Below, in pieces: positions 1 to 46,213 of a DNA stretch of 64,000 bases. The stretch covers positions 416,001-480,000 of the forward strand of contig OZ246001.1 in NCBI GenBank assembly GCA_965230295.1, written 5' to 3'. A model generated the notes under the pieces. It was not told the DNA's origin and did no database searches. It saw only the letters and a list, made by a program, of their open reading frames with translations. Made by a program: the position numbers and the translations under genes. The first letter of the stretch is position 1; the number at the start of each line of letters is the position of its first letter. Source of the DNA: Marinicella sp. (GTDB taxonomy: Bacteria; Pseudomonadota; Gammaproteobacteria; Xanthomonadales; Marinicellaceae).

Positions 1-2646
1 TTTGGATCAGGCCAAATCGTGGGTGTTGCAGATTCAGGACTGGATCACAATGAAGATTGGTTTGCCCACCACGACAATGGATCTGGTGTGGTAACAGCCA
101 TCACGGCTGCAGAAGCCACTTTGCCACCCTTGATTGGGACTCTAAGCCCAGACAATAAAGTGGTAGGTTATTGGGTGATGCCCGGCGCCGCAGCTTATGA
201 TCATGGAACCAATCATGGAACCCATGTGGTTGGCTCTGTAGCTGGCGACGAATCCACCAATGTTTCATCACCCACCAGTTCTGGTTATGACAATGACGAT
301 GGCATGGCACCGAACGCACAAATTTTATTCCAAGACATCGGCAGTGCATCGGGCTTAACCGGGGTTGGATCCACCCCCATGTGGCAACAAGCCTATGCTG
401 CAGGTGTCAGGATTCACAGCAACAGTTATGGTTCATCAACCTTCGGTGAGTATGTCAGTTCTGACCGAAATGTAGACATTGCTTTGCGAGAGTTGGATAA
501 CATGATCATTGCCATCGCTGCCGGAAATGATGATGGCTTTAATAACACCACAGGCTCACCGGCCAATTCCAAAAGTGCCTTATCTGTTGGCGCATTGGGT
601 CATGGCAACAGCACTTCAGTGGCCGGATTTTCGAACCGGGGGTTAACAGACGATGGCAGATTGAAGCCAGACATTGCAGCCACTGGTTCCAGCATCCAAT
701 CGGCAGCTGGTGACACCAACAACTCCAGTACCATCGATCCCAATCCAAGCCGAACCACCAAAAGTGGCACATCCATGTCTACACCAATCACAGCAGGCAC
801 CACCGCTTTGTTGCGCCAATATTTCACTGATGGATTTTACCCAACTGGCGTGGCCAATCCCAGTGATGCCCTGATCCCAAGTGGACCATTGATGAAGGCC
901 ATGTTGTTGAGTGGCACCAGCACAGATTCCGGTTTTTTCGACAAAAACACCGGTTGGGGAAGACCTTGGTTGGAAAACACCTTATATTTCCCTGGCAGTG
1001 ATCGATCTTTTAGATTTTGGGACGTCACCCATGAATCTGGCCTGAGCACAGGTGAAAGCATCAGCTTTGATGTAGATGTTTTGGCAGGCGAAGAGTTTCG
1101 GGCGGCTTTGGTTTGGTATGACGTACCGGGACCAACAGGTTCAGGTGTTACTTTAGTCAACAACCTCAACCTGACCGTTGCTGCCCCAGGAAACACCTAT
1201 TTAGGAAATCGATTCAGTGGTGATGTTTCGATAACCGGGGGCTCTGCAGACAACCTCAATACAGTAGAACAAGTCAGACTTGAAACCCCTGCTACTGGCA
1301 CCTACACCATCACTGTAGATGCACCCAATGTTCCAGGCGATGGTGATTTTGGCACTGATAAACAGGGCTTTGCATTGGTGGTATCAGGACGACTGGGGTC
1401 CAATTCACCAGTGGCCATTGGCGACCCCAGCAGCCTGACAGCCAATGACACTGGCGTCAGTGGCGTTGATTTAAATTGGTCTGCTGCCAGCGGTGCCGAT
1501 CATTATGACATTTATCGAGCTGATGGTAGCTGTGCCTCTATGAATCCGGGCGAATTCAGATACATCGGTCAATCAACAGTTAACAGCTATAATGACATCA
1601 ACACCTCTGGTGGCTATGAATATGCCTATCAAATCAGGGCTTTCAATGCGGACAACCAAAGTAATTATTCCAATTGTGCAGATGTGCTTTCTACTCAAGC
1701 TTGTTTGATCCCACCTACATACAACCGCAGTTCAGCCGGTGTCAGCAGTCAAACCAATGACACTTGTGAAATTACGTTGAGTTGGGATGCTGCCAGCAGT
1801 AATTGTCCCACCGATCCCGATTTGACTTACAATATTTACCGTTCTGATACCCATAATTTCATCCCGGGTCCGGGTAATTTGTTAACCACCACAGCCCCCA
1901 ATGTCACCAGTTTCAGTGACACGATGGTCAGTCAAGGTGAAAATTATTTTTATCGCATCAGTGCCGTTAACAACGGCAATGAAACACAACTGACTCCCGA
2001 ATTGGTCAACTCTCCAATCGGAACCCCATCAGCCCTCGAAGGCACCATGGGTGACAACCAAGGTGTTGATGACGCCAATTTGATGATGACCTTAGAATCT
2101 CCATGGTCTGTATCTAATGATGACAGCAGTGCTGGCTCTTTAAGTTATCGATCGGCACCAGAGGGAGCCAACAGTTACTCGTCTAACTTATGTGCCAGGG
2201 CCTATTCACCAGTCATTTCCATTCCTGTAGCTGGTTCTTCAGCTCCTGTGTTGTCTTACAAAGCCAACTATGAAATTGAAGCCGATTGGGATGGAATCGT
2301 GGTTGAAATTTCAACCGATGGTGGTGCCAATTGGGTTGACTTACCTCCTGTCGGCGGCTATCCAGGCGATTTCAGTCAAACCGGCAACCCGGCAATCAAT
2401 GGATGTGGTTATGCAGCAAGCCATGGTGCCATCAATGGTACCAGCAATGGAGCTTTTGAAGATTTCAGTCACGCACTTTCAGCCTATACAGGTCAGACGG
2501 TTCAATTCAGATGGAGTTTTTCAACGGATCCTGGCTTTGAACAAGAAGGCTTCTATTTGGATGAAATCAACTATGAAAACATCCACCTGCCAAACACTTG
2601 TAATATGGGCAGCTCTGATATAATTTTTATTGATGGTTTTGAATAA
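1..2646 (+). CDS. Secreted S8 subtilisin-like serine protease (KP-43-like) with FN3-like and jelly-roll accessory domains; 5' end lies outside the window
   Basis: Frame is open from base 1 (FGSGQIVGVADSGLD). Catalytic motifs DSG, HGTHVVG, AAGN and SGTSMS are present, followed by FN3-like repeats (LNWSAA..YDIYRA..YAYQIRAFN). Ends DIIFIDGFE. Confidence 0.92.
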   Translation, partial: FGSGQIVGVADSGLDHNEDWFAHHDNGSGVVTAITAAEATLPPLIGTLSPDNKVVGYWVMPGAAAYDHGTNHGTHVVGSVAGDESTNVSSPTSSGYDNDDGMAPNAQILFQDIGSASGLTGVGSTPMWQQAYAAGVRIHSNSYGSSTFGEYVSSDRNVDIALRELDNMIIAIAAGNDDGFNNTTGSPANSKSALSVGALGHGNSTSVAGFSNRGLTDDGRLKPDIAATGSSIQSAAGDTNNSSTIDPNPSRTTKSGTSMSTPITAGTTALLRQYFTDGFYPTGVANPSDALIPSGPLMKAMLLSGTSTDSGFFDKNTGWGRPWLENTLYFPGSDRSFRFWDVTHESGLSTGESISFDVDVLAGEEFRAALVWYDVPGPTGSGVTLVNNLNLTVAAPGNTYLGNRFSGDVSITGGSADNLNTVEQVRLETPATGTYTITVDAPNVPGDGDFGTDKQGFALVVSGRLGSNSPVAIGDPSSLTANDTGVSGVDLNWSAASGADHYDIYRADGSCASMNPGEFRYIGQSTVNSYNDINTSGGYEYAYQIRAFNADNQSNYSNCADVLSTQACLIPPTYNRSSAGVSSQTNDTCEITLSWDAASSNCPTDPDLTYNIYRSDTHNFIPGPGNLLTTTAPNVTSFSDTMVSQGENYFYRISAVNNGNETQLTPELVNSPIGTPSALEGTMGDNQGVDDANLMMTLESPWSVSNDDSSAGSLSYRSAPEGANSYSSNLCARAYSPVISIPVAGSSAPVLSYKANYEIEADWDGIVVEISTDGGANWVDLPPVGGYPGDFSQTGNPAINGCGYAASHGAINGTSNGAFEDFSHALSAYTGQTVQFRWSFSTDPGFEQEGFYLDEINYENIHLPNTCNMGSSDIIFIDGFE

Positions 2647-2669
2647 AACCTGAATTCAATACTTGTAGT

Positions 2670-2706
2670 AAGCCGCTGTTCAATTCCTTGAATGGCGGCT
2701 TTTTTA
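2670..2706 (+). terminator. Intrinsic terminator hairpin between convergent genes
   Basis: AAGCCGCTGTTCAA-TTCC-TTGAATGGCGGCTT followed by a T run; overlaps the stop codon of the convergent trpF-like gene. Confidence 0.75.
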
Positions 2707-3357
2707 TTTTGACCCTGACTGACTGGCCCGAATAAAGTTTGTGAGCTTTTCAGCATCCAAGCAGTCATCTGTTCTGACACTGCTACACAAGTCCAAACCA
2801 TAAGGATGTACTTGGCTGATGGCCTGTGCCACGTTCTCTGCACTTAATCCACCCGCCAAATAGACCGGTATTGACACCGATTCAACGATTTGTTGGCTCA
2901 ATCCCCAATCGTGTGTCCGACCGGTACCACCCAATTCTTTGATGGCTAAATTGGGGTTGCCGCTGTCCAGTAACAAAGCATCCACATGTTTCGCCACTGA
3001 TTCAGCTTGGGTCACTGAATCCTGATCGATGACATGAATCACTTGTACCAATTTAACTCCAGGCAAAGCTGATTTGATGTCAGCATAGGTGCCTGACTCA
3101 AGGGCGTCGACCAATTGTAAAGCACTGCTGTTCACTTTTCGATGATGAGCAATGATTCTGGCGGCGGAGGTTTCACTGGTTAACAAGAATGTTTCAATGT
3201 GTGCAGGCACTTCAGCTGCAATGGCGGCGGCCATCTCATCCGAGATGATCCCGGGACCGCTGGGCATGTCACCCACCAGTCCCAGTATGTCTGCCCCGGA
3301 AGCCACTGCTGTTTTCGCCTCCTGAATGGAAGAAATACAACAAATCTTAATCTTCAC
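2704..3357 (-). CDS. trpF: Second phosphoribosylanthranilate isomerase (TrpF-like)
   Basis: Motifs [34 protein letters not shown] and PYGLDLCSSV. Likely start is GTG at 3357, with GAGG upstream, overlapping the folC stop; the ORF-track start at 3408 lies deeper inside folC. Confidence 0.8.
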   Translation of the reverse strand: MKIKICCISSIQEAKTAVASGADILGLVGDMPSGPGIISDEMAAAIAAEVPAHIETFLLTSETSAARIIAHHRKVNSSALQLVDALESGTYADIKSALPGVKLVQVIHVIDQDSVTQAESVAKHVDALLLDSGNPNLAIKELGGTGRTHDWGLSQQIVESVSIPVYLAGGLSAENVAQAISQVHPYGLDLCSSVRTDDCLDAEKLTNFIRASQSGSK

Positions 3358-4621
3358 TAAACACCTCTTCCAGCACATGGAATGAACCGAATACAACGAT
3401 TCGGTCATCCGGATTAGCCAATGACAAAGCCATGTTGTAGGCCTGTTTCGCTGATGAAAATGTGGAAAACAAATTCACTTGATCTGCCATCATCAGTTTT
3501 AAGTCATCCAATTCCAATGCCCGGGCATTGTTCAACTCAAACACCAGCCAATGATCAAAGGTGCCTCTGAGTTCTGCGAGCCAATTTTCTGGTTCCTTGT
3601 CAGCCAACACTGAAAATATTGCAATGGTTTCACCCGCTATGGGATGAGCTGTTAACCACTGGTTTAAGCTTGATACCGCCTGCTTGTTGTGGGCCACATC
3701 AGCCAAAACCAGGGGCTGTTCATGCATGGTTTGTAAACGACCCGGTATCTGCCATTGGGCCAAAACTTGCTGCAATTCTTTGGTATGAAACTGATAACCC
3801 AATGCCAACATCGCTGTCAAAGCACTGGAAAAATTTTTGATTTGCCAATCCCCTTTGGCAACTGGCATATTCAATTGCTTGAATTGCTGCTCACCCGATT
3901 GATAGCTCCAGTCTGACGCATTGATTTGACAACCATAGGCCTCATCAATGGCCAATAAACGTGAATTCAGCTCACTGGCTTTGGTCAGTATGGCTTGTGG
4001 AACATTCAAGTCACCGTAAATAACTGGAGTATCTGCTCGCATGATGCCCGCTTTCTCTTGAGCAATGGTTTCAACATCGCTGCCCAACCATTCGGTGTGA
4101 TCGATATCAACCGTGGTGATGATCGCCACGTCTGCATCCAATGAATTGGTGGCATCAAGGCGCCCCCCTAACCCAACCTCCAACACGATGACGTCGACAC
4201 GATGACTGATAAACACCAGTAATGCCGCCAGAAATGCGTACTCAAAGTAAGACAAACTGATTTCACTTTTGGCTTCATCAATGGCAGTAAAAGCTGTCAG
4301 TATTTCATCATCACTCGCTGCTTCGCCGTTGATGTTGATCCGTTCATTGAAAGTGAAGATATGAGGCGAAGTGAAGGCACCAAATGAAAGGCCTTTGGAT
4401 CGCAGCAGGCCACACAAGGCAGCCACAGTCGACCCTTTGCCGTTGGTGCCGCCCACTGTAATGATTTGCTTGGCTGGCTGCGACAATTGCAGGCGATCAA
4501 GAACAAGGCGCAGCCGGTCTAGCCCTAAATCAATTTTGAATTGATTCAGGGCTTCCAGTCTTTGATTAAGCAACTGATGAGTTTCTGACTTTTGTTTTGA
4601 TTTATTCTTGTGGGTGGTCAT
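3347..4621 (-). CDS. folC: Bifunctional folylpolyglutamate/dihydrofolate synthase
   Basis: Motifs [41 protein letters not shown] and DVAHN; follows accD. Confidence 0.96.
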
Positions 4622-5513
4622 CGGCCACGATTACTTCATCGGGTTCAACCGCTTCGGAAGACAGTGGCTTCAGCAAATCCAGCAGTTGGTGAATTTTTTC
4701 ACTTAAATCATGACGCGCCACAATCATATCAATGGCACCATGCTCTAACAAAAACTCACTGCGTTGGAAGCCTTCAGGCAAGGTTTCCCGAACCGTTTGT
4801 TCTATCACACGAGGACCAGCAAAACAGATCAGCGCATTGGGTTCTGCGATGTTGACATCACCTAACATGGCCAAAGAAGCTGATACACCACCAGTGGTCG
4901 GATTGGTCAACACTGAAATGTATGGCAAACCGGCCAATTTCATGCGTTTCAAGGCAGCGGCTGTCTTTGACATTTGCATCAGGGAAAACAAGGATTCTTG
5001 CATTCTGGCACCGCCAGAAGCCGAAAAATTAATCAAAGGCAGCTGCTCCTTCAATGCCAGGTGCACAGCCCTCACAAATTTTTCACCGACCACCGAACCC
5101 ATGGAGCCTGCCATGAATTTAAAATCAAAAGCAGTCACCACCACATCACGACCTTTCAGTTGCCCTTTGACAGCCACCAAAGCATCGTTCTCACCCGTTG
5201 CCTTTTGGGTGGCCACTATGCGGTCTTTATAGCGTTTGCTGTCTTTGAATTTCAACGGATCTTCAGGTTTTACATCGGCCGCAATTTCAACCATTGGTGA
5301 ATCATCTAAAAAGAATTCTATGCGTTCCCGGCCCGACAAAGATTCATGGTGCCCACATTTAGGGCATACTTTGCCATGTTTGATGGTTTCAGGTTGGTAC
5401 AAGACGGCTTCGCACTGTTTGCACTTACCCCACAGGCCCTCAGGAATGTTTTTCTTTTTTTTGCCACCTTCGGTTCGAATTCTTGATGACATTATTTTTT
5501 GAAACCAGCTCAT
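4602..5513 (-). CDS. accD: Acetyl-CoA carboxylase carboxyltransferase beta subunit
   Basis: [13 protein letters not shown] zinc ribbon, [30 protein letters not shown] and [10 protein letters not shown]. Confidence 0.97.
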
Positions 5514-5546
5514 GTGAACTCCAATTAATTTCTACGGGACAGTCAA

Positions 5547-6344
5547 TTATAACGAATCGAGCGCCGTTCTGATAGGTTTGATGAAATCAGTCATGGCCTG
5601 TTTTGCTGACTCAATCGAGTCACAGGACCCCAAAACACTGACCAAAGCACTGCCTATGACCACTGCATCTGCTTCTTGAGCGACCGCCACAGCAGATTCA
5701 GCGTCTTTCACACCAAATCCTACCGCTATGGGCAAATCAGTGTGTTGTCTGATTTTCTTGACATCTGCATTGACCGAATCACTGTTTAAGTCTGCCGATC
5801 CAGTTACTCCTTTCAGGGCCACATAGTAAACAAAACCTGAAGCGTGACGACATATCATGGCTTTGCGCTCTTCTGTGGTGGTGGGCGCAACCAAAAATAT
5901 TTGATTCAATTCATGTTGGCGCATTTTCAGTAATAAATCATCTGATTCTTCCGGGGGACTGTCAACCAACAACAAAGCATCAACACCAGCTTGCTTAGCC
6001 TGCTCGACAAAAACATCGTTACCCATACACTCAACCGGATTTAAATAACCCATCAACACCACTGGTGTCTGTTGGTCTTTGCGGCGGAACGACTTGACCA
6101 TCTCAATGGTGTTGTCAATACCCACACCATGTTCAATGGCTTGTTCAGAAGCATGTTGGATCACTGGACCATCAGCCATGGGATCTGAAAATGGCATGCC
6201 CAATTCAATGATGTCAGCACCACAATCAACCAAATGGTGCATGATTTCAACAGTCATTTCAGGATCAGGATGTCCGGCTGTCACAAACGGAATCAGTGCT
6301 TTTTTACCAGCCAATGTTTCGAACCGTTGTTTGATTAAACTCAT
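5547..6344 (-). CDS. trpA: Tryptophan synthase alpha subunit
   Basis: Motifs [28 protein letters not shown] and AVGFGV; overlaps the trpB stop. Confidence 0.97.
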
Positions 6345-7540
6345 ACCAAGACCCCCTCAATGGCAGCAATGGTGTGTACATCCTTATCACCACGTCCAGA
6401 TAAATTAACAATGATGTTTTGCTCTGCTGATAAAGTGGCTGCCAATTGTTGTCCATAGGCCACTGCATGGGCCGATTCCAAAGCCGGTAATATCCCTTCT
6501 ATCCGGGTTAAATCGTGGAAAGCCTTCAAAGCCTGGTCATCATTCACAGTCACATATTGAGCGCGCCCGGATTCATTCAAAAAAGCATGCTCAGGGCCGA
6601 CACCTGGGTAATCAAGTCCAGCTGAAATTGAGTGAGTCTCAATGATTTGACCTTGTTTATCAGACATCACATAGGTCCTGTTGCCATGTAAAACACCAAT
6701 CTTTCCTGCCGTTATTGATGCCGCATGCTCACCAGTTTCAACCCCATGACCACCGGCTTCTACACCATATATGGCCACTGCTTCGTCATCCAAAAACGGG
6801 TGAAACAATCCCATGGCATTCGATCCACCACCCACACAAGCCACCAAAGCATCAGGCAAACCACCAACTTTTTCAGCAAATTGTTTTTTGGCTTCTTTGC
6901 CAATCACTGAATTAAAGTCTCTGACCATTTGTGGATAAGGGTCCGGACCTGCCACCGTTCCTATGATGTAAAAAGTATCATCAACATGGGTAACCCAATC
7001 ACGCATGGCTTCATTCAAAGCATCTTTCAACGTTTTAGAACCCGAGTCCACGCTGCGCACTTCAGCACCCATTAATTTCATGCGGTAAACATTGATGGCT
7101 TGTCGCGCAATGTCAACTTCTCCCATATAAACCACACATTCCAGCCCCAAACGCGCACAAACTGTTGCAGTGGCCACACCATGTTGCCCAGCACCTGTTT
7201 CTGCTATGATGCGTTTTTTTCCCATGGCCTTGGCCAACAAAATCTGCCCCACAGTGTTGTTGATCTTGTGAGCACCGGTATGATTTAAATCTTCGCGTTT
7301 TAACCAAATCTTGGCACCACCAGACACCTGTGTTAATCGTTCAGCGAAATAAAGTGGCGATGGTCGGCCAACATAATCTGCCAAATCGTGATTAAACAGC
7401 GCCAAAAATGCCTCATCATTTTTAAGGCGGGCATAGGCCTCTTGTAGTTCAGCGAGGCAATGCATCAGCGTTTCGCTGGCGAAAATGCCGCCAAACTGAC
7501 CAAAATGCCCCCTGTTATCGGGATAATCTGAATATTTCAT
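6341..7540 (-). CDS. trpB: Tryptophan synthase beta subunit
   Basis: Motifs [15 protein letters not shown] (PLP lysine), [18 protein letters not shown] and [13 protein letters not shown]. Start is uncertain: 7540 (MKYSDYPD) or 7591/7594. Confidence 0.97.
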
Positions 7541-7571
7541 AGTCTTTTTATTGTGGGTTTTATTTTGATTT

Positions 7572-8213
7572 TTAATTATTTTTTTCGTCATCAAAGGACT
7601 TTACTTCATCCATCAATGCCTTCATTTTAGATCTCGATTTTACGCCAGGAGATGCTTCAATACCACTGCTGGTATCAATATATTTTGCAGCTGTTATCTG
7701 TAATGCCAATCTGACATTTTCTGCATGAATGCCACCCGCTAAAATCATCGAATCTCGCAGCACTTCAGGTATCTTAAACCACTCAAATGACCTACCAGAA
7801 CCACCCGATTGTTTTCGTCCATAGGCATCTAGTAAATAAGCCGCTGCTGAAGGGTGTTGGTTGACATATGCCGAATAGTCATTCACGGTTAACATGGGCA
7901 CCGCTTTCCAGTATGGCCGATTAAACTGTTGACAAAATTCAGCCTCTTCATCACCGTGAAACTGAATCACATCTGGTTTGATCTTATTAACCACATCCGC
8001 AATAAAACTGGCTTCCTGATTTGCAAACAAAGCCACTGCTGTGACGCCCGCTTGCTGAGCTGATTGAACCAACGGAATGGCGTCTTGAATGGTGATATAT
8101 CGAGGGCTTTGGGGCACAAACACAAAGCCGACTGCATCAACGCCACACCCAATCGCCGCATCAACATCTGATGGCGTTCTTAAGCCACAAAATTTAACCC
8201 GTGTATTACTCAT
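7572..8213 (-). CDS. trpF: Phosphoribosylanthranilate isomerase (canonical operon copy)
   Basis: Motifs [33 protein letters not shown] and ILAGGI. ATG at 8213 overlaps the truA stop; canonical truA-trpF-trpB order. Confidence 0.95.
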
Positions 8214-8967
8214 AGTTGGGGATATCATATATTTCTGGGTAAGTGACATTGGTAAAAGTCAGGCCTTCCGGAGGAGCTGTCATGCCGGCTTGTTTGCGAT
8301 CTTTACTCATCAACACGTCATTCACCCAACTGATTGGTTTTTTACCATGACCAACTTTTATTAACGTGCCCACAATGTTTCTAATCATGTGATGCAAAAA
8401 GCCATTGGCAGTGAACTTGAATGTAATCACATCTCCATCCCTACTGACTGATGCCTGCAACATCCTCCTTTCAGGGTGGTGGGCCTGGCACTTGCTGGAT
8501 CTGAATGCACTGAAATCATGGACTCCCAATAAACTTTGAACGGCTTCATGCATCGCATTGTGGTCCAGGTCATGTAAAATCCACGTCAAATGATGTCGAT
8601 TAATGGCAGGTCTGACCTCTCGATTCAAAATTTGGTACACGTAACTTCTGCTGGTGGCAGAAAATCGAGCATGGAATTCATCATTCACAGGCAAGACCCA
8701 CAGAACAACGATGCCGTTGTGTAGTGCCGTGTTGATGCCCAACTTCCATTGCCTTTCAGTTCTCGTGGCTTCGGTTTCAAAGTGAATCACTTGATGCGTG
8801 GCACTCACACCAGTATCGGTCCTTCCTGCACAATGTATCTTCACTGGATGGTTGGCAACCTGGCTGATTGCTTTTTCTAAACATGACTGTACTGTAGGTT
8901 CTTGTTTTTGTATCTGAAACCCAAAAAATGGTTGTCCATCATATTCAATACCACAAGCAATACGCAT
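8206..8967 (-). CDS. truA: tRNA pseudouridine(38-40) synthase
   Basis: Motifs IEYDG, CAGRTDTGV, FHARFSA, HDFSAFR and FLHHMIRNIVG. Confidence 0.96.
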   Translation of the reverse strand: MRIACGIEYDGQPFFGFQIQKQEPTVQSCLEKAISQVANHPVKIHCAGRTDTGVSATHQVIHFETEATRTERQWKLGINTALHNGIVVLWVLPVNDEFHARFSATSRSYVYQILNREVRPAINRHHLTWILHDLDHNAMHEAVQSLLGVHDFSAFRSSKCQAHHPERRMLQASVSRDGDVITFKFTANGFLHHMIRNIVGTLIKVGHGKKPISWVNDVLMSKDRKQAGMTAPPEGLTFTNVTYPEIYDIPNYE

Positions 8968-9001: not shown

Positions 9002-9019
9002 GGTTAAGGATGACAAGAA

Positions 9020-30938: not shown

Positions 30939-31197
30939 CTGCTTAGTCTAACTGCAATCGGTGAATTAAATCATGAAGAACCTCACAATATAACCTGTCT
31001 GGTAAAGAATCGTGATCTATTCAACATTATTTACTAACAGGTCGAGCCCTGATTCTATATTTTTGTATATGATTTTGTGAGCCCCGTCTCTTTATATAGG
31101 TGCTACCTGTGCTATGTTAAATGAATCATCATAATTAGACTGAGTGTGTTTAGGCAATGGCTTGAGTGTGTTGGTTGACAACTGCGCGAGGCAAATA

Positions 31198-32214
31198 ATG
31201 AACAAGCTCATCACTACAGCCCTTTTAATCATCACTGTGACTGCTTCTGTCCGAGCAGTCGAAACACTGATCAAAAATGACTCTTTGGTCGATTTCAGCA
31301 GTGGCAACATCCAACTGGGCTTCGTAGCCAATGAATCTGCAGCAGCTTGGTTAGAAGCTCCTTGTGATGGTGATTTGATTGCTGTCCAGGTTTTTTGGCG
31401 CTCGGCGAATGTCAACACAGCACCTTCTATTGAACAAGGCATCACCATATCTACTGCAGGTGTTTTTCCTGAGCCAGGTGAATCTCTAGAAAACATTGTC
31501 GGCACAGTTCTCAATGATGGTGTATTCAATGAATACCGATTTCTGGATGAAAACAATGTGGTTCCATTGATCGTACCTGTCACTGCTGGCGAGACCTATG
31601 TGGTGTCGTTTCAGTTTGAGAACACACCCACCGCCTCAGGCGCCAGTTTGGTGACTGATACCGACGGCTGTCAAACAGGTAAAAATGCCATCTTTGCCAT
31701 ACCACCTAATGTCTGGTTTGACAGCTGCCTGCTGGGAGTGACAGGAGATTTTGTGATCAGGGCTGTGGTTGATTGTCCAGTGGTGACTAACGAAGTGGAT
31801 CTGTCGGTTATTCAAACCGCCAATCCGGTCAGTTATACGGCTGGCCAAGATTTATCCTTCCAAATTACAGTCAGTAACTCAGGTCCAGCATCAGCCAACG
31901 CCACCAGTGTGATTGATTTCTTTCCTGCCCAATTATCAGGCGTTGATTGGATCTGTACACCCAACAATGGCGCCACCTGTAACAACGCCATTGGCAGTGG
32001 CAACCTCACCGAATCGGTTAATCTACCAGCCAACAGCGGTGTGGTGATTGATGCTGTTGGGACGGTAGCGATCGGTACCACTGGACTGATCAGCAACACC
32101 GCTCAAGTGATTGTTCCTCTGGGGGTGACTGACACCAATCCCGGTAACAATTCTATGGTTTTGGATATTCTTGAATCCACCGGTGATTTAATCTTTGCGG
32201 ATGATTTTGAGTGA
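31198..32214 (+). CDS. Secreted DUF11-like domain protein
   Basis: ATG 31198 with GAGG SD; signal peptide; DLSVIQT..FQITVSNSGP..D..ISNTAQV..DTNPGNN; ends DLIFADDFE. Confidence 0.82.
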   Translation: MNKLITTALLIITVTASVRAVETLIKNDSLVDFSSGNIQLGFVANESAAAWLEAPCDGDLIAVQVFWRSANVNTAPSIEQGITISTAGVFPEPGESLENIVGTVLNDGVFNEYRFLDENNVVPLIVPVTAGETYVVSFQFENTPTASGASLVTDTDGCQTGKNAIFAIPPNVWFDSCLLGVTGDFVIRAVVDCPVVTNEVDLSVIQTANPVSYTAGQDLSFQITVSNSGPASANATSVIDFFPAQLSGVDWICTPNNGATCNNAIGSGNLTESVNLPANSGVVIDAVGTVAIGTTGLISNTAQVIVPLGVTDTNPGNNSMVLDILESTGDLIFADDFE

Positions 32215-35600: not shown

Positions 35601-35640
35601 CTGCGATATCACCGTTTTGTTTGGCGATGCGAGCCGATGG

Positions 35641-37341: not shown

Positions 37342-37362
37342 GGGCCACCACAACGTCGAAAT

Positions 37363-37387
37363 CAAAAGGCGCTGCAGGCGCCTTTTG
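37363..37387. terminator. Bidirectional intrinsic terminator
   Basis: CAAAAGGCGC-TGCAG-GCGCCTTTTG between convergent genes. Confidence 0.75.
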
Positions 37388-37391
37388 GCTC

Positions 37392-37565
37392 TTATTTATC
37401 AGGCGGTTCATTTTGCTGGTCACCCATGGCCAGATTTAACCAGAACCAAAGCTCAACCACCGCTGCAATGATGATGACGACAACTGTGCCGGTCTTGAAA
37501 CCAATAAAATACAACAACAAGGCCAGGGCAGCCAGGGTCAATAAAGTCAGTCCTCGTGAGTTCAT
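37392..37565 (-). CDS. Small 57-aa two-TM membrane protein, not in the ORF track
   Basis: MNSRGLTLLTLAALALLLYFIGFKTGTVVVIIIAAVVELWFWLNLAMGDQQNEPPDK; GAGGTG upstream of the ATG; terminator 5 bp after the stop. Confidence 0.75.
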   Translation of the reverse strand: MNSRGLTLLTLAALALLLYFIGFKTGTVVVIIIAAVVELWFWLNLAMGDQQNEPPDK

Positions 37566-37721
37566 ATCACCTCAATCAAATAAAGATCATATTAACAAAA
37601 TCACCGACCAGAATCATCAGTCGTAAGTCATGATCTACTTGCGACAAAAATAATTAAATTTACCCACATGATCTTGACGCTTTTTGGTTAAAATGATGGG
37701 TTTGATTCACCTTTGACCAAC

Positions 37722-40547
37722 ATGAAAAGTATTTCCCTTCGAGGCGTCAGAACCCACAATTTAAAAAACATAGATATCGACTTGCCCCGTGATCAATTCA
37801 TCGTCATCACGGGCTTGTCAGGCTCTGGCAAATCTTCCTTGGCATTCGACACCATTTATGCTGAAGGACAACGTCGTTATGTGGAGTCTTTATCTGCTTA
37901 CGCCCGACAATTTTTATCGATGATGGACAAGCCGGATTTGGACCACATCGAAGGGTTGTCACCCGCCATTTCAATTGAACAAAAGTCGACCTCTCACAAC
38001 CCACGCTCTACGGTAGGCACCATCACCGAAATCTATGATTATTTGCGGTTATTGTATGCCCGCATCGGCACACCCAAATGCCCTGATCATGCGATATCAT
38101 TGGAAGCTCAGGAAGTCTCAGAAATGGTCGATAAAGTTTTGGCCTTGGAAAGTGGTCGAAAACTGATGTTACTGGCACCGGTGGTCAGAAACCGCAAAGG
38201 CGAACACCTGTTGTTATTGGAGCAATTACGCGGCAGTGGTTTTGTGCGGGTCAGGATCGATGGGACTTTGTACAACATTGACGACCTCCCCAAGTTAAAC
38301 CCCAAACAAAAACATGACATTGAGGCGGTGGTGGACCGCTTTAAAGTCAAAGAAGGCATCGCCCAGAGGTTGGCGGAATCTTTTGAAACCGCCCTGTCGT
38401 TGTCAGAAGGTTTGGCCATGGTGGTTTCCTTTGATGATGGAGGTGACACGAACTTGATGTTCAGTTCTTTGTTTTCCTGCCCTGTGTGCAATTACTCACT
38501 GAGTGAATTGGAACCCAGGCTGTTCTCTTTCAATTCTCCCAATGGGGCCTGCAGTGAATGCGATGGCTTAGGCGTCAGTCAGTTTTTTGATCCCGAACGG
38601 ATCATCGTCAATAAAAACTTATCCATGGCAGAAGGCGCTGTTCGCGGTTGGGACAAACGCAATGGCTGGTACTTTCAATTGCTACAAGCGGTGGCTAAAA
38701 AATATAAATTCGATGTCAACACACCACTCAAAGATTTACCACAAAAAGTCCAGGATGTGTTGTTTTATGGCAGTGGTGAGGACAACATCAAATTCACCTA
38801 CTACAGCGACAAAGGTCAGTATGAGCGCAACCACCCGTTTGAAGGCATCGCCAACAACATGAAGCGCCGTTATCAGGAAACCGAGTCATCCATGGTTCGT
38901 GAAGAACTGAATAAGTACATCAGCAAAAAACCCTGCCCACAATGTGAAGGCCAGCGATTGAATCGCAGTGCCCGCAATGTGTTCATCAATGATGTGCCCT
39001 TACCGCACATCAATGCCATGTCTATTGCTGGCGCTTTGCGGCATTTTGAAGAACTGAACTTAACAGGGCAAAAGGCGCAAATAGCAGAAAAAATCATCAA
39101 GGAAATCCGCGAACGCTTGAGCTTTTTGGTGAATGTCGGCCTGAACTATTTAACGGTTGATCGCAAAGCCGATTCACTCTCTGGGGGTGAAGCACAACGG
39201 ATTCGGTTGGCCTCTCAGATCGGTGCTGGATTGGTGGGTGTGATGTATGTCTTGGATGAACCGTCCATTGGCTTGCACCAGCGTGACAATGAAAAATTGT
39301 TGAAAACCTTGGTTAATTTGAAAAACTTGGGAAACACGGTGATTGTGGTTGAACACGATGAAGATGCGGTCAGGATGGCTGATCATGTGGTGGACATCGG
39401 ACCGGGTGCTGGTGTTCATGGTGGGCACATCGTGGCTGAAGGCACGCCGAAACAGATTTGTGCCAACAAAAATTCAATCACTGGTCAATACCTCACTGGC
39501 GCACTTAAGATTGACATTCCCCAAAAAAGACACCCCGTGGACAAGAAAAAGGTGTTCAAGCTTAATGGCGCAACCGGCAACAACCTGAAAAATGTCAATG
39601 TTGAAATCCCAGCGGGCCTGTTTACTTGTATCACAGGCGTTTCTGGCTCAGGCAAATCAACTTTAATCAATGAAACCGTCTACAAGGTGCTGGCCAATCA
39701 CTTGAATCGGGCCTCACATCAGTCACAACCCTATAAAGATTTCAAAAACATCGAATTGTTCGACAAAGTGGTGGACATCGACCAGAAACCCATCGGTCGG
39801 ACCCCAAGATCCAATCCGGCCACATATACACAATTATTTGGCCCCATCAGGGATTTGTTCTCTAACACACCCGAAGCCAGAACCCGAGGCTATAAACCTG
39901 GTCGATTCAGTTTCAATGTCAAGGGTGGACGTTGCGAAGCTTGTCAGGGTGACGGTGTAATCAAAGTCGAAATGCACTTTTTACCAGATGTTTATGTGAC
40001 CTGTGACACCTGCAAGGGTAAACGCTACAACCGTGAAACACTGGATGTGCAATACAAAGGCAAAAACATCTATGAAGTTCTTAATATGACCGTAGAGGAT
40101 GCCCTACCCTTTTTCTCTGCCATACCCAACATCGCCACCAAGCTGCAAACGCTGTTGGATGTGGGTTTGAGCTACATCACCCTTGGACAAAATGCCACCA
40201 CCTTGTCCGGAGGCGAGGCCCAGCGTGTCAAACTGGCCAAAGAACTGTCCAAGAGAGACACTGGCAAGACCGTCTATATTTTGGATGAGCCAACCACCGG
40301 GCTACATTTTGCAGACATCAAACAATTGCTTAAAGTCTTGCATCATTTGCGAGATAATGGCAACACCATTATGGTCATTGAACACAATCTAGATGTGATC
40401 AAAACAGCCGATTGGATCATAGACCTGGGACCCGAAGGCGGACATGGTGGCGGTGAAATCATCGCCAAAGGTACACCCGAAACATTGGTTAAAGTAAAGA
40501 AAAGCCACACGGGTGCTTTTTTAAAGCCGATCCTTGAGAAAGGCTAA
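37722..40547 (+). CDS. uvrA: Excinuclease ABC subunit A
   Basis: THNLKNI, two Walker A motifs ([16 protein letters not shown]), two LSGGEAQR signatures and zinc fingers. Confidence 0.98.
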
Positions 40548-40620
40548 TTCAGGACTTTTGTTACATGCAATGTTCAACATAACCTGACATAATAATTTAA
40601 AGTTAACAAGCAAACTCATT

Positions 40621-41853
40621 ATGAAAAAAATCGTATTTACTGCGTTATTAACCACTTCTTGCTTGGGTATGGCAGCCAATCCAGAGCCCATCATCTATGG
40701 CACAGTCACTGAAACCAATGGTCAGACTTATACCGGCAGCATTCGTTGGGGAGACCAGGAGACATTCCTCAGTGATATTTTTAATGGCAGAAAATTAACC
40801 ACAGTGGGATTTGAACACCTCAGTGAAGACGAACAAGATGATTTGCTGGACCACCAACCAGGGCCCCAAGCCACCATTGGTGATTTACAAATCACTTTTA
40901 AATCATTTTTTGGTAAAGAAATCGATCAACCTTATTTCAACGTCCCTTTTGGTTCAGTCAAGCAACTTGAAATTGATAACAAGAAAAATTTGTTCACCGC
41001 CACATTACACGATGGCACCACCATCGTCAGCGATGGCAGCAGTTCAAATGATTTGAACAGTGATGTTTTTGTGAAAAACTTACAGGGTGAAACCAAAGAG
41101 TTTGAGTTGGATGATTTATCACTCATCACTTTTTCCAAAGCGCCGCAAGCAGCTTTGACTTATGGCGATGGTATTTATGGCACTGTGACTTCATCCATTG
41201 GCACCTTCAAAGGTCGTGTTATGTGGGACAAAGATGAACGACTGACTTACGAAGAACTGGATGGCAATGACGAATCTCAAGACTATGAAATCAAATTTTC
41301 TGAAATCAAAAGCATCGAAAGAAGTGGCAATTCATCTATTGTTGAATTAACCAACGAAACCACTTTAAACTTAACAGGCACCAATGATGTCAACAATGGC
41401 AACCGAGGCATCTGGGTAGACCACCCAGATTTAGGCCGTGTTGAAATTGAATGGTTACAATTTAAAAAACTGGTCATAGAAGATGTGGATGTTGACTGGA
41501 TGGACTTTGATGACTATGCCAACAAAACCAAGCCACTGAAAGGACAAGTCGAACTCAAAGATGGCTCTAGAGTGGATGCTGACAGCATCATCTATGACAT
41601 GAACCAGCAAAGCTCATCCGAATTGCTGTATGTGGATGTCAATGAAGCCAATCGTGAAATCCCTTTAAGAACCATTCAAGAAATTACTGTAAAGCACGAT
41701 CAGGCAGTCGAGTTAAAACTACATGACCAATCAACCATACTGGCCTATGGCAACCGCAGCGTGACCCGCGAAAACAATGGGGTCTTATTAAAAACCCAAG
41801 GCAACCACCGCTGGATTCCGTGGGAACAAGTACAAACTGTTATATTTAAATAG
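40621..41853 (+). CDS. Secreted hypothetical protein with three internal beta-rich repeats
   Basis: Signal peptide; repeat units begin IYGTVTE, IYGTVTS and LKGQVEL. Confidence 0.78.
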   Translation: MKKIVFTALLTTSCLGMAANPEPIIYGTVTETNGQTYTGSIRWGDQETFLSDIFNGRKLTTVGFEHLSEDEQDDLLDHQPGPQATIGDLQITFKSFFGKEIDQPYFNVPFGSVKQLEIDNKKNLFTATLHDGTTIVSDGSSSNDLNSDVFVKNLQGETKEFELDDLSLITFSKAPQAALTYGDGIYGTVTSSIGTFKGRVMWDKDERLTYEELDGNDESQDYEIKFSEIKSIERSGNSSIVELTNETTLNLTGTNDVNNGNRGIWVDHPDLGRVEIEWLQFKKLVIEDVDVDWMDFDDYANKTKPLKGQVELKDGSRVDADSIIYDMNQQSSSELLYVDVNEANREIPLRTIQEITVKHDQAVELKLHDQSTILAYGNRSVTRENNGVLLKTQGNHRWIPWEQVQTVIFK

Positions 41854-41869
41854 CCTTCTGCTGATACCT

Positions 41870-42135
41870 GGGCCTGTTAACACCATGCAAATGGTTACTG
41901 TTATGACTGAAATTAATCCAATCAAGGCGCGAAGAGCGCAGTTGGGTGATTCCCATCAAGTGATGAGCAACACCGAGTGGGTTAATTTCAGCCCTAACCC
42001 CTAGGGCTGGGTTGCTTTTTCCACCCAACATCGTTATCAGTCGTTCATGTGGAATAACCACACATCACGACTTTTGCCTTGTCGGATTGAAAAAACAACT
42101 CCAGCAGTCACTATTCACATAGTGTTAACAGGCCC
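41870..42135. mobile_element. MITE-like non-autonomous element (266 bp)
   Basis: Perfect 14-bp terminal inverted repeat GGGCCTGTTAACAC (41870-41883 / 42122-42135), extending imperfectly to about 31 bp; internal hairpins; no transposase; related sequences at 20677 and 32224. Confidence 0.75.
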
Positions 42136-42140
42136 TGATT

Positions 42141-42827
42141 TCACTGGCTGGCCAGTTTATAACCTACGCCGCGAATGGTTTGGATCCACTTGTCTTTGTT
42201 GTGTTTCTTGAGGGCTTTGCGCAAACGCAGAACGTGGACGTCAACCGTGCGATCTTCGACAAAGGTATTGCGCCCCCAAATGTGATTCAGAATGTGCTCC
42301 CTGGTTAACAGCTTATTTGAGTTTTGTAAAAACAGTTTCAATAACTTAAATTCTGTTAAACTCAGGCTGAGTGATTCACCATCAATATTGATTTCATGTG
42401 ATTCTCCGTCTAGCACAATGTCCTGATATTTAATGCGGTGACTGGTTTCAAATCCACTCGAGCGGCGCAAATGAGCCCGGATTCGAGCCATCAGCTCCAA
42501 CATGGAGGCCGGTTTTGTCAGATAGTCATCAGCTCCACGTTCCAGGCCTTTGACTTTGTCACTCTCCTCTGCCCTGGCTGTGAGCATGATGATAGGCACT
42601 TCCTTAATCACTTCATCCCGACGAATCATGTCGATGAGATCTATGCCACTCATGTCAGGCAGTCCCCAATCAATCACAATCAAATCCGGATGTACCTGAT
42701 TCAGTTGTTCTAATGCTTCATTACCTGAAGCGGCTTTGAAAGTTTCAAAGCCTTCACGGCGCAGTGAAAATGCCATCATTTCACGAATTGCCATGTCATC
42801 TTCAACAATCAAAATGTTGCTGTGCAT
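42141..42827 (-). CDS. phoB: Phosphate regulon response regulator PhoB
   Basis: Motifs ILIVEDDMAIREM, DWGLPDMSG, PIIMLTARAEESDKVKGLE and VEDRTVDVHVLRLRKAL; 228 aa from ATG 42827; Pho box upstream. Confidence 0.88.
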   Translation of the reverse strand: MHSNILIVEDDMAIREMMAFSLRREGFETFKAASGNEALEQLNQVHPDLIVIDWGLPDMSGIDLIDMIRRDEVIKEVPIIMLTARAEESDKVKGLERGADDYLTKPASMLELMARIRAHLRRSSGFETSHRIKYQDIVLDGESHEINIDGESLSLSLTEFKLLKLFLQNSNKLLTREHILNHIWGRNTFVEDRTVDVHVLRLRKALKKHNKDKWIQTIRGVGYKLASQ

Positions 42828-42855
42828 GTCTTCTGAGTTTTCGTTTAAAGTGGTC

Positions 42856-42889
42856 ATGATAAGTAACAATTATGACATCTCAATGACAA
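42856..42889 (-). promoter_or_regulatory. Pho box and -10 element of phoB
   Basis: Minus strand TTGTCAT-TGAG-ATGTCAT (11-bp-period direct repeat), then exactly 10 nt, then TATCAT. Confidence 0.75.
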
Positions 42890-42931
42890 AATTGTCATAA
42901 ATATCGATGATCTCACTTTCGATTCAACAGA

Positions 42932-43387
42932 TTACTCACAACTGTAAACACGTTTTAAGGTTTCATAAAGTGTTTGTTTGAATGCTTGTTTACTGATGAT
43001 GTTGGCATCCAGTTCATGTATGAGTTGTTCAATCACAACTTTTCTCGAGGTCTCTTCTGGCAAGCAAAACTTGGCATAGTAGGTGACTGGCAAAGTACCT
43101 CTGTTACCACCCACTCGGGTCTTGTATGCGCGTTGAAAAAATGAAGAAAACTCTTGTTTCTCTTTGGTAATATTTTCAATGATGGCTCTGTCAGTGATCA
43201 CTGCACCATCGATAAAACCATTGATGTATTCATAGCAGATACTGTCTTCCGGAATCACTTCACTGTCAATCAGATGAGAGCAGGATTTAACCAGCGCTTC
43301 TTCGGCACTTTCAGCATGCACCGATGACAGATTGGTGGTGAATAAAAATATAATTACCAAGCGCATAAACGGATCATTGAGTTTCAT
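42932..43387 (-). CDS. Rap1a/Tai-like secreted immunity-type protein
   Basis: Signal peptide; four-Cys pattern L..SC...CYEYINGFIDG...FCLP...LKRVYSC resembling the Rap1a family. Confidence 0.6.
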   Translation of the reverse strand: MKLNDPFMRLVIIFLFTTNLSSVHAESAEEALVKSCSHLIDSEVIPEDSICYEYINGFIDGAVITDRAIIENITKEKQEFSSFFQRAYKTRVGGNRGTLPVTYYAKFCLPEETSRKVVIEQLIHELDANIISKQAFKQTLYETLKRVYSCE

Positions 43388-43412
43388 GTTGTGTCTTCCA
43401 CAATGTTAAAAC

Positions 43413-43431
43413 AATAATGATAATCATACGC
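43413..43431. promoter_or_regulatory. Fur-box-like site
   Basis: AATAATGATAATCATACGC, 15/19 to GATAATGATAATCATTATC; 26-44 bp upstream of the 43387 ATG. Confidence 0.45.
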
Positions 43432-43575
43432 ATGTAGACAAAATGTCAATTTTTTGAAAATATTTAGTTTTTTTCATCATAATTGGTTGCTCTGGTGATA
43501 ACTCTGGATTTATGCTCCTGCACAACCCGATAAGAATCAAAAAAAGACTCCATTTTCAGTGAAATATAATTATCG

Positions 43576-44646
43576 ATGATGACTACATTTGATCAATGGT
43601 TCCCAACCGTTAACCCAACCACCTGCTTTGGCTGTATTCGTACTCAGCCTGAAGACTTTCAAGTCTCAGAAATCAATGACCTCGCTTTCACCGAACAAGG
43701 GGAACATTGGTGGTTGTTCGTAGAAAAAGTCAACAGCAACACAGCCTGGGCAGCCAGCCAAATTGCCAGCGCTTGTAAAGTCCCTGCAAAACAAGTGGGT
43801 TATGCAGGACTGAAAGACCGCCATGCGGTGACTCGGCAATGGTTCAGTGTCCAGTTACCCAAAATCAGGGATTTGGCCGTTGTTAAAGGCAAGCTACCCA
43901 AAGAGCTTTCAGTGATTGACTCGCATTGGCATCAAAGCAAAATCAAACGTGGTCAATTAAAGGCCAACCAATTCACGCTGCGCATCAGAAACTTCACGGG
44001 TGATCAATCGCAAATTGAAGAAAACATCAAAGCAATCAGAAAACGCGGAGTTCCCAACTACTTTGGCCCTCAACGATTTGGACACGACATGGGTAACATT
44101 GACAAAGCACGCTCCTGGTTTGCAGGCGATATCAAAGTCAACAACAAGAACCAACGAAGTCTCTACATCTCAACTGCCCGCAGTCATATCTTCAACCAAA
44201 TCATAGCGCACAGGTTAGAGAATCAAATATGGGACCAAGTGCTTGAAGGTGACATCATCCAGCTTTCTGGCAGCCATTCTTGGTTTCATGAACGGGATGC
44301 CGAACAGGTTGAGTTGGTGACCAGACTGGCAAAATTTGATGTGCATATCACAGCGGCTTTATGGGGTGAGGATGCTGTGCAAAGCAATTTAATGTGTGCT
44401 GATATGGAAGGCAAAATTGCCAATGAACACCCTATTTACATAAAAGGACTCAAACAACACCGAGTCAAACAAGACCGACGGGCTGTGCGGCTGGTACCCA
44501 TGAACCTGGAACACCAATGGGTTGATGGCGACTTGTTGATCACCATGAAACTCGGCCCTGGTTCTTATGCCACCAGTGTCTTACGTGAAGTGCTGAATGT
44601 AACAGACGCGTCAGCCAATAAAAATGGAAACTCTGCGATCAATTGA
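43576..44646 (+). CDS. truD: tRNA pseudouridine(13) synthase
   Basis: Motifs PEDFQVSE, GEH, YAGLKDRHAVTRQWFS, GVPNYFGPQRFG and GSYATSVLRE. Confidence 0.96.
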   Translation: MMTTFDQWFPTVNPTTCFGCIRTQPEDFQVSEINDLAFTEQGEHWWLFVEKVNSNTAWAASQIASACKVPAKQVGYAGLKDRHAVTRQWFSVQLPKIRDLAVVKGKLPKELSVIDSHWHQSKIKRGQLKANQFTLRIRNFTGDQSQIEENIKAIRKRGVPNYFGPQRFGHDMGNIDKARSWFAGDIKVNNKNQRSLYISTARSHIFNQIIAHRLENQIWDQVLEGDIIQLSGSHSWFHERDAEQVELVTRLAKFDVHITAALWGEDAVQSNLMCADMEGKIANEHPIYIKGLKQHRVKQDRRAVRLVPMNLEHQWVDGDLLITMKLGPGSYATSVLREVLNVTDASANKNGNSAIN

Positions 44647-44697
44647 CAGTCGTCGGCTTTTTTGGAATGATGACTGAAACAAATTTGAGATAACATC

Positions 44698-45372
44698 ATG
44701 ACAGACACCATCGACCTGTATTCAGGACCACTCAGTATGTTCGGCATGAAAGCCCACATTGCCATCCTTGAAAAAGGAATACCGCATAAATTGATCATGG
44801 TGCCTTATTCTGATGCCCAAGGCTATTATCCAAAGCATCCAGAAGTTATCAGAATTAATCCCAAGCAACAAGTGCCCGTGTTGATTCATGCTGACATTGA
44901 ATTATTTGACTCAACACAAATATTCGAATACCTGGAAGACCTCAAACCAAAGCCTGCACTCTGGCCTGAACCACTGAATCTGAAAGCCAAGGCCAGACAA
45001 GTCGAACTGATGGCAGATGAGGTCTATTTTCCTCACGTTGTTAAATTAATGGGCTTACAAAATGATTTACAAGGTGAAGCTGCCTTAACAGCCATTGACG
45101 CTTGTCAGTCTTACTATGTACAAATGGAGTCTCAACTGGGAAATGGTGCTTTTTTAGTTGACCAATTGTCTTACGCCGACATCGCCTTTTTTATGGCACA
45201 GTTGTTTGGTGAACGAATGGGTGCACCGATTACAGAAAACACACCCAATTTATTGGCTTGGCGACTTAACATGATTGCGCGGCCTTCTGTTCGAAAAGCC
45301 TTGAAACCTTTGATTGGTTTTTTACATGGAGAAAACCGCCCTGTTCCCCCGGACATAGACCTACCCGGCTAA
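44698..45372 (+). CDS. Glutathione S-transferase family protein
   Basis: Motifs INPKQQVPVL, LFDSTQIFEYLED and LSYADIA. Confidence 0.9.
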   Translation: MTDTIDLYSGPLSMFGMKAHIAILEKGIPHKLIMVPYSDAQGYYPKHPEVIRINPKQQVPVLIHADIELFDSTQIFEYLEDLKPKPALWPEPLNLKAKARQVELMADEVYFPHVVKLMGLQNDLQGEAALTAIDACQSYYVQMESQLGNGAFLVDQLSYADIAFFMAQLFGERMGAPITENTPNLLAWRLNMIARPSVRKALKPLIGFLHGENRPVPPDIDLPG

Positions 45373-45394
45373 GAATGGAAATAATTGGTTTATA

Positions 45395-46213
45395 TCAATT
45401 CAGGTTGGTTGAAGTACAAATTGAGTTCCAGGCTTTTTCAGGCAAATCATTCAACAAAACATGCCCCCCGGAGAATTCATCGAGCATATAATCTTGATCA
45501 ATCACCCACCCACCGGCAATAAAATCTGGACGATCATTCAACACAGCTGCATAAAGGAAATCGACATTGCCCACTGAAACAAAAATGGGTATGACCCGAC
45601 TGGCATTACTTGGCGTATAACCATTGGGCGCTGCATATTGATCTAAATCACCGGCACTGACCGCATAAGCAGCAAAATAATCGGCATTGTTTAATGCAAT
45701 GGCATGCATCACATGCCCACCTCCTGAAAAGCCCCAAACATACCGGCGGGAGGTTTCGATGTTGTATGCCGACTCCATGTCGGTAAAAATGCTGGCAAGA
45801 ATCTGGGAGTCCACCCCATAGACCCAACCTCCATCATCACCTGTTGACACCTGAGACACCACAATAAAGCGATTTTCTTCCGCTTCTGCTTGCCACAAGT
45901 TGCGCATATCCAGTGCCGCAGCTGTTGCGTTGCCAGCTCCTGCTGTTCCATGCCAGACCACCATGATCGGCATGGCTTCAGCAGCAGCATAACTACTTGG
46001 CACATAGATATAGTAAGTATAATTTCCCAACACAGTCCTTTGCTGTAGGCCGGGGAATGTACCACCTGATCCATTGGACGGCACTGAGTCATTCTCATTG
46101 CTGTCAGCGAAAATCATGTCGGGACATTGATTGATACTGGGCACTGTGGCCACTGATTGGGTGAACCAAGCCAAACTACAAATCAATACCAAAAAACATT
46201 CAGTCTTTTTCAA
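45395..46213 (-). CDS. Secreted alpha/beta hydrolase (PHB-depolymerase/esterase-like)
   Basis: Signal peptide; [14 protein letters not shown]; nucleophile elbow GFSGGG; GNVD and GGH as the putative acid and His. TTG start overlaps the parC stop. Confidence 0.8.

Follow-up and report, generated by a model that had tools for sequence, protein, structure and literature searches.

A nine-residue C-terminal tag on exported proteins of Marinicella and related bacteria appears to be a new kind of sorting signal

Many exported proteins of a Marinicella sp. (genome G000; a single contig, OZ246001.1, of 4,008,074 bp and 44% GC) end in nearly the same short peptide, here called the tag. Three examples lie in the 64,000-nucleotide stretch with which this analysis began (G000:C1:416001-480000; hereafter the window). 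The tag is real, abundant (~3% of the proteome, about one in thirty proteins), portable and unstructured, and it is carried by exported proteins. Among C-terminal sorting signals it seems to represent a new kind. Our best reading, which we offer tentatively and regard as somewhat more apt to be wrong than right, is that it directs proteins along the type II secretion route as a portable sorting tag read in trans; the candidate adaptor or scaffold is an uncharacterised secreted family, designated A1.

Within the window, DIIFIDGFE, DVIYMDGFD and DLIFADDFE each stand directly before the stop codon of one open reading frame (ORF), and no further ORF there is tagged (Table 1). An earlier note on this DNA had pointed to these three near-identical 9-mers, and all three were borne out by ORFs that end as it described. 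The first carrier is a Peptidase S8 by Pfam PF00082, above cut-off (121 bits, E 7.7e-35); the start of its gene lies 755 nt upstream of the window, and the protein begins MKQKFTLKPLAGALMLGSIYAAQAQ. The second, P0002, passes NCBIfam NF041518 (40.1 bits against a cut-off of 25), which places a choice-of-anchor Q domain at residues 438-493, directly N-terminal to the tail. The third is a DUF11-repeat protein whose start is probably the ATG at 31198, judging from MNKLITTALLIITVTASVRA. The note had ascribed Sec signal peptides to the two carriers whose N terminus lies in the window; the N terminus is signal-peptide-like in all three proteins, including the S8 protease, whose start lies outside the window. 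The note had extended its feature to position 46120, a coordinate at which we found nothing linkable to the motif.

The numbers for the whole genome are far from chance. The strict 9-mer pattern ends 39 of the 5812 stop-to-stop ORFs of at least 100 residues in G000. Counted by protein, over 3507 non-overlapping ORFs, the 7-mer [ILVMP][FY].[DNST][GDSNAT]F[EDQ] occurs 136 times; 115 of these occurrences lie no more than 16 residues from the C terminus, 68 exactly at it and the other 47 (~40%) with 1-16 residues beyond the motif. Shuffling the last 40 residues 200 times gave a mean of 0.88 (maximum 4) near-end and 0.035 (maximum 1) exact-end matches, and reversed proteins gave none of either kind. 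A proteome scan of this sort had been proposed as a check on the tag, and the C-terminal enrichment that it returned is extreme.

Conservation is confined to the peptide itself. Among the 68 exact-end tails, position -9 is Asp in 56 and position -8 is Leu or Val in 44, both still conserved although they lie outside the search pattern; the last residue is Glu, Asp or Gln in every one, and motif position 6 is Asp, Asn, Ser or Thr. Positions upstream of -9 carry at most 0.7 bit each, and no conserved DNA follows the stop codon in these 68. Since the information is restricted to the last nine positions, the tag can be written D-[LV]-I-F-x-[DNS]-[GD]-F-[ED]. The peptide is conserved while its codons differ between low- and high-GC genomes; it is therefore the peptide, not the DNA, that is under selection.

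Rare copies of the motif in G000 stand elsewhere: some directly follow a signal peptide or separate two domains, and one protein has the motif in tandem. In the 180-residue product of 2454379-2454921 the motif comes right after the signal peptide. It lies 39 residues into the 2340-residue product of 1551084-1558106, past a CC-containing N-terminal stretch; by eye only, this large protein looks Rhs/SpvB-like. In four proteins the sequence continues past the motif, with domains in g1099 and g1632 and with 85-90 residues in g1268 and g2856. The products of 1421560-1424421 and 3172793-3178705 have 85-90 residues past the tag and end in a DxDGDG calcium-binding-like motif.

The carriers have export in common, not fold. 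By a crude rule, 89 of the 115 tagged proteins (77%) have a signal-peptide-like N terminus, versus 793 of 2737 other proteins (29%), and their median length is 486 versus 279 residues. At least a dozen unrelated domain types are tagged, among them S8+fn3+MAM, beta-helix/choice-of-anchor Q, DUF11, FG-GAP, DUF285, CotH+LTD, LRR, trypsin+MAM, CarboxypepD_reg+fn3, HpiC1-like and PKD. In the AlphaFold2 model of P0002, whose mean predicted local distance difference test (pLDDT) score is 89.6, residues 496-503 fall below 50, have no secondary structure and are unpacked. Orthologues keep the tail even though the linker that precedes it varies. The short tail was seen on 72 of 120 relatives of P0002 and a long one ([IV]FxDGFESGDTSAWSxxxP) on 23; the other 25 carry a different C-terminal domain or no tail at all. 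Relatives of A1 normally end ...YGGLFxHK, and in five of 120 the tail is appended past that end.

These observations bear on whether the tail has a function in trans at all. It might be a remnant of structure, such as the first strand of a beta-sandwich domain since lost, or serve as an intramolecular cap. The sequence that follows the motif in g1099, g1632, g1268 and g2856 would suit such an origin, and we presume that the long form FxDGFESGxxSxW resembles the start of many beta-sandwich domains. We nevertheless think this very improbable: the motif occurs on at least a dozen folds and is kept in orthologues despite the variable linker, the model of P0002 leaves the tail unpacked, and the tail has been added to an A1 family that normally ends otherwise. 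That the motif might be the last strand of a larger shared domain had been raised in advance as grounds for abandoning the tag, and no larger shared domain was found.

The tag was compared with the known C-terminal signals. The GlyGly-CTERM/rhombosortase system (e.g., VesB of Vibrio cholerae) is similar in that its C-terminal signal is modular and marks Sec-exported proteases and adhesins secreted by the type II pathway. The GlyGly-CTERM combines a motif with a transmembrane helix and a cluster of basic residues, and a membrane protease cleaves it; the tag has nine residues and neither a hydrophobic helix nor a known enzyme. The MAM domain of the window S8 protease is found also in rhombosortase- and myxosortase-dependent M36 peptidases. 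PEP-CTERM/exosortase, LPXTG/sortase, MYXO-CTERM and IPTL-CTERM resemble the tag in that one tail is shared by dozens of unrelated surface proteins in each genome, with a choice-of-anchor domain before the tail; these signals are tripartite, with a membrane-spanning segment that the tag lacks. The tails in G000 stop at the motif or within 1-16 residues of it, a scan for a helix plus basic residues picks out other proteins, and the tail matches no curated NCBIfam or Pfam sorting-domain model. About six G000 proteins end in a different tail, xPVPVxSxWxLLxL plus basic residues, which we take to be IPTL-CTERM-like (Table 1); it is much rarer than the tag, and two kinds of tail therefore coexist in this genome.

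The C-terminal domain of the type IX secretion system (T9SS) likewise directs ~100 large proteins, secreted or surface-bound, across the outer membrane, and it has no membrane helix. It is, however, a folded domain of 70-100 residues in Bacteroidota, whereas the tag is nine unstructured residues in Gammaproteobacteria and Acidobacteriota, with no NCBIfam match; conservation covers those nine residues only, and no conserved beta-sandwich is found. Nor does the tail have the terminal aromatic residue and alternating hydrophobic residues of an outer-membrane beta-signal, the last residue being acidic or Gln throughout. The eukaryotic PTS1 -SKL and KDEL signals, short C-terminal address peptides read by receptors, offer an analogy in which a few C-terminal residues are recognized by a soluble or membrane receptor, differing from the tag in kingdom, compartment and sequence. 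No Pfam or NCBIfam model covered the tail in nine proteins, in six of them even at E up to 10; a phmmer search of the long tail against PDB sequences returned only chance HasA matches (E >=0.13). The tail was not found in the literature searched by motif string and topic, subscription journals lying outside that coverage. In these respects the earlier note holds up well: it had described a portable tag on unrelated exported proteins, which the many folds and the signal-peptide association support, and a tail without transmembrane helix or basic cluster, unlike those of the LPXTG, PEP-CTERM, GlyGly-CTERM and T9SS systems.

The tag is taxonomically restricted. A first DNA pattern, anchored at the stop codon (I-F-x-[DN]-x-F-[DE]-stop), matched 46 times in G000, versus none for its reversed control, and 11-51 times in each of 18 sampled genomes of the genus; among 300 other Gammaproteobacteria no genome had more than two, which is the control level. 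Because this pattern demands I-F and an immediate stop, it undercounts two families (f7 and f8 below), and its counts are lower bounds. A broad pattern, F-x-[DN]-G-F-E anywhere, was then applied to 201 genomes of the order, 123 of which were tag-rich (at least eight matches). By family these are 27 of 28 in f1, 1 of 28 in f2, 7 of 7 in f3, 27 of 27 in f4, 2 of 2 in f5, 2 of 2 in f6, 14 of 27 in f7, 10 of 27 in f8, 10 of 10 in f9, 16 of 16 in f11 and 7 of 27 in f12. Sampled broad-pattern matches were true C-terminal tags in 28 of 30 cases in two f7 genomes and 24 of 30 in two f8 genomes; the f7 and f8 tags are a variant with [LVF]F at motif positions 3-4, often with 1-12 extra residues. The tag is thus present through most families of the order, and the similar tails that the note had placed in Xanthomonadales-related genomes are indeed common there. 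Genus g7 (13 genomes) has both type II systems and A1, yet only 0-6 motif matches, and the f6 genomes, also with both systems and A1, have only 12-14.

Outside the order, five Acidobacteriota genomes reached through relatives of P0002 had 53-95 matches each, versus 0-2 for the control. There dozens of proteins end in a longer form, FxDGFESGxxSxW; in one of these genomes 16 of 20 sampled matches were long C-terminal tails.

This distribution speaks to the idea that the tail is a sticky strand without a dedicated reader, one that would bind the outer membrane, lipopolysaccharide or other tagged proteins and so hold cargo on the surface. The peptide is short and amphipathic with acidic ends, it can occur at either end of a protein, and one protein carries it in tandem duplication, all of which would suit simple adhesion. 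We judge this improbable, since sharp taxonomic limits and clade-wide losses despite similar envelopes favour a specific partner, as does the strong conservation of individual residues, including Gly/Asp at position 7.

The candidate partner comes from the neighbours of tagged genes in G000. A1 is an uncharacterised secreted family of ~470 residues with a signal peptide and no Pfam match; G000 has 11 copies (855496-856917 and its paralogues), and other genomes have tandem arrays. One of the 11 is itself tagged, and five of the ten untagged ones directly adjoin non-homologous tagged genes. An A1 copy stands last in a complete type II secretion operon of the order gspE-F-G-H-I-J-K-L-M-(240-residue gene)-gspD-(small lipoprotein)-A1, and A1 also closes the operon in all ten of the other genomes compared, which represent six families. 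It is present in 151 of the 201 genomes of the order and in 120 of the 123 tag-rich ones, the three exceptions being ~95% complete. The sole tag-rich f2 genome of 28 has it, as do all seven tag-rich f12 genomes of 27 and one further f12 genome. Tag-rich genomes are nested within A1-bearing genomes. The operon secretin, found at E 1e-40 or better in 196 of the 201, including tag-free, A1-free ones, is far more widespread than the tag; within the operon it is therefore A1, not the secretin, that tracks the tag. In one tag-poor f8 genome (L049, G080:C1:1391469-1411468) the operon-linked A1 is in three pieces with frame breaks.

Two other neighbours were set aside. RND efflux genes stand beside lone tagged genes in two low-count genomes and are not adjacent to tagged genes in G000, so that they were dropped as chance. 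A Sortilin/Vps10-BNR family lies near tagged genes and is present in 24 of 27 f8 genomes; it is not an obligate partner, and it was not found in the tag-rich genomes G001, G014, G195, G020, G067 and G178 among the three candidates scored per genome, a number at which misses are possible.

In the scheme that we propose, the short linear motif D-[LV]-I-F-x-[DNS]-[GD]-F-[ED], unstructured and portable, would act as a sorting tag from its place close to or at the C terminus of Sec-exported proteins. Once a tagged protein had passed the Sec system and folded in the periplasm, its exposed tail would be recognized in trans by an envelope component, most likely part of the type II route, that is, of the gsp operon closed by A1. 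A1, a predicted beta-sandwich family, would be the candidate adaptor or surface scaffold, and tagged proteins may in consequence cross the outer membrane, be kept on the cell surface, or both. The features expected of type II substrates and their host are present: signal peptides on most tagged proteins by the crude rule and on all three in the window, and encoded type II systems, of which G000 has two. VesB offers a precedent for a C-terminal type II signal that can be grafted: its Ig-fold, read by the EpsC PDZ domain, is, like the tag as envisaged here, C-terminal, graftable and selective for type II cargo (PMC12369372), and differs from it in being a folded domain. The earlier note had left a choice between an export signal and a strand docking cargo onto a scaffold; its portable tag on exported proteins stands, and the tail may be either of the two. 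The likeness to dockerin and cohesin that it invoked is an analogy only.

Several points count against a role for A1. It is not sufficient: 31 A1-positive genomes are tag-poor, including all 13 of g7 and 16 of f8. The correlation is carried by a few clades and so reflects few independent events, perhaps five to eight, and cargo families would give the same pattern. A1 is itself secreted, expanding and sometimes tagged, and so may be cargo and not reader. In the tag-rich genome G033, the A1 loci listed are not beside the tag loci listed, except for one tagged A1 copy. The five Acidobacteriota genomes gave only marginal A1-like matches (E ~1e-6, in two of the five, over 60-80 residues). The few motif copies after a signal peptide or between domains make a strictly C-terminal reader unlikely. 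Finally, the A1 model is confident (pLDDT 91.8) and its fold only generically sandwich-like. Foldseek returned nothing at E 0.001 or better, VIA-align gave TM1070 (1nc7) as the best match (Z 7.9, root-mean-square deviation 2.5 over 105 residues) with galectin-like sandwiches next at Z ~4.5, and the ESM Atlas gave "hypothetical protein" clusters only; the predicted fold offers no functional clue.

A different reader could belong to the second type II system of G000 (gspC-D-E-F at 654,370-659,829, gspG-K at about 2,608,000). Its GspC combines a T2SSC domain with a PDZ domain at the C terminus, and PDZ domains bind C-terminal peptides by strand addition, so that the tail could be a peptide ligand of this domain, a reading that we hold to be quite unlikely. 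An orthologue of the second-system GspD is present in 93 of the 94 genomes with at least four first-pattern matches, including the lone f2 genome and seven f12 genomes. Moreover, there are two PDZ subtypes, and genomes of the deletion subtype carry tags of another form, with [LF]F at positions 3-4 and 1-12 residues beyond GFE in 26 of 28 sampled tails. In Vibrio, VesB is selected by the EpsC PDZ domain (PMC12369372). On the other side, nine f8 genomes with 9-27 broad-pattern matches, among them the two whose sampled matches were true C-terminal tags in 24 of 30 cases, and the f4 genome G151 lack an orthologue of that GspD, G135 and G147 have only paralogue-level secretins against it, and all 13 g7 genomes have the second system but few tags. 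The five long-tail Acidobacteriota genomes have no match to the GspC profile or to Pfam T2SSC. Many other Gammaproteobacteria carry a PDZ-bearing GspC, yet the tag was in none of the 300 sampled. A PDZ ligand has a free C-terminal carboxylate and a hydrophobic last residue; the acidic last residue of the tag and the 47 of 115 G000 tails that do not end at the carboxylate lower the likelihood of such binding, and no more than lower it, given that internal beta-finger ligands exist.

As a necessary reader, the second system with its PDZ-bearing GspC was rejected once the broad pattern had revealed the nine tag-bearing f8 genomes without its GspD; as a reader in some lineages only, it is possible. 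A single complex prediction of GspC residues 170-288 with P0002 residues 436-503 scored 0.00, which speaks neither for nor against the pairing. When the secretin neighbourhoods of the five Acidobacteriota genomes were compared with the secretion proteins of G000 by BLAST, the only matches other than secretins were a weak GspL-like one in L194 and GspF- and GspE-like ones in L197; no GspC match was obtained in the five by BLAST alone, the L195 locus being almost without callable ORFs.

The Acidobacteriota raise another alternative, namely that the tail is the site of a processing or attaching enzyme shared with that phylum, sortase-like or like PorU of the T9SS and acting without a membrane anchor. 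Such an enzyme would cleave the tag internally, perhaps at [DN]-G, and the protein would then be joined to a surface molecule. The cargo classes (choice-of-anchor Q, MAM, FG-GAP, DUF11) are those of sortase, exosortase and T9SS systems, extra residues past the motif are tolerated as they would be in a leaving group, and the same motif occurs in a phylum without detectable A1 or GspC. We still regard this as unlikely. No candidate enzyme was found; position 6, being Asp, Asn, Ser or Thr, is not a strict cleavage residue; and copies at the N terminus or between domains would be destroyed, or would split their protein.

Some neighbouring genes are recorded here. Nine Ser/Thr kinase-TPR proteins and four extracytoplasmic function (ECF) sigma factors of G000 lie no more than two genes from tagged genes (e.g., 1136103-1138685 and 1159942-1160583), which suggests dedicated regulation of the cargo genes; the neighbour analysis showed such regulators as sigma factor-kinase pairs. 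The window encodes a large hybrid sensor kinase with AraC-type output and Reg_prop and Y_Y_Y domains (54388-58371, minus strand), and another large hybrid sensor kinase with AraC-type output lies within the largest cluster of tagged genes (L001:5658-9524). Two window ORFs matching phosphoribosylanthranilate isomerase (2704-3408 and 7572-8249, both minus strand) flank trpBA-accD-folC; the former, which overlaps the adjoining Mur-ligase ORF by ~60 nt, is perhaps a weaker or degenerate copy.

Table 1. Tagged genes and tags of the window (window coordinates) and IPTL-CTERM-like tails of the genome (G000 coordinates)
Feature	Coordinates	Strand	Details
S8 protease, 3' part of gene	1..2646	+	1133-1137 residues whole; secreted; S8, fn3 and InhA-like MAM domains
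Tag DIIFIDGFE of the S8 protease	2617..2643	+	stop codon 2644-2646
P0002	29427..30938	-	503 residues; signal peptide; right-handed beta-helix and choice-of-anchor Q domain
Tag DVIYMDGFD of P0002	29430..29456	-	stop codon 29427-29429
DUF11-repeat protein	31144..32214	+	signal peptide
Tag DLIFADDFE of the DUF11-repeat protein	32185..32211	+	stop codon 32212-32214
Protein with presumed IPTL-CTERM-like tail, G000	3056-3868		
Protein with presumed IPTL-CTERM-like tail, G000	820214-821107		
Protein with presumed IPTL-CTERM-like tail, G000	982792-983415		
Protein with presumed IPTL-CTERM-like tail, G000	2285626-2286402		
Protein with presumed IPTL-CTERM-like tail, G000	2778439-2783760		
Protein with presumed IPTL-CTERM-like tail, G000	3946541-3948502		

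The question of how the type II system selects its cargo has long been open, and the Discussion of PMC12369372 takes the view that the pathway has no linear universal signal. Possibly, and with more doubt than confidence on our side, the tag is the first linear transferable signal for this pathway: a nine-residue peptide on ~100 proteins per cell, read by a dedicated accessory protein (A1, or the GspC PDZ domain in some lineages), with a longer form common to Acidobacteriota. The finding matters in that a nine-residue tail on this share of the proteome has the statistics of a sorting signal and a clear pattern of presence and absence over ~200 related genomes. Recognition of the tag would improve the prediction of localisation for thousands of "hypothetical" surface proteins in bacteria of the Xanthomonadales type and in Acidobacteriota, and so short a tag for export or display could serve biotechnology. 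If the route is not type II, the tag would still be a new class of C-terminal sorting motif awaiting its machinery.

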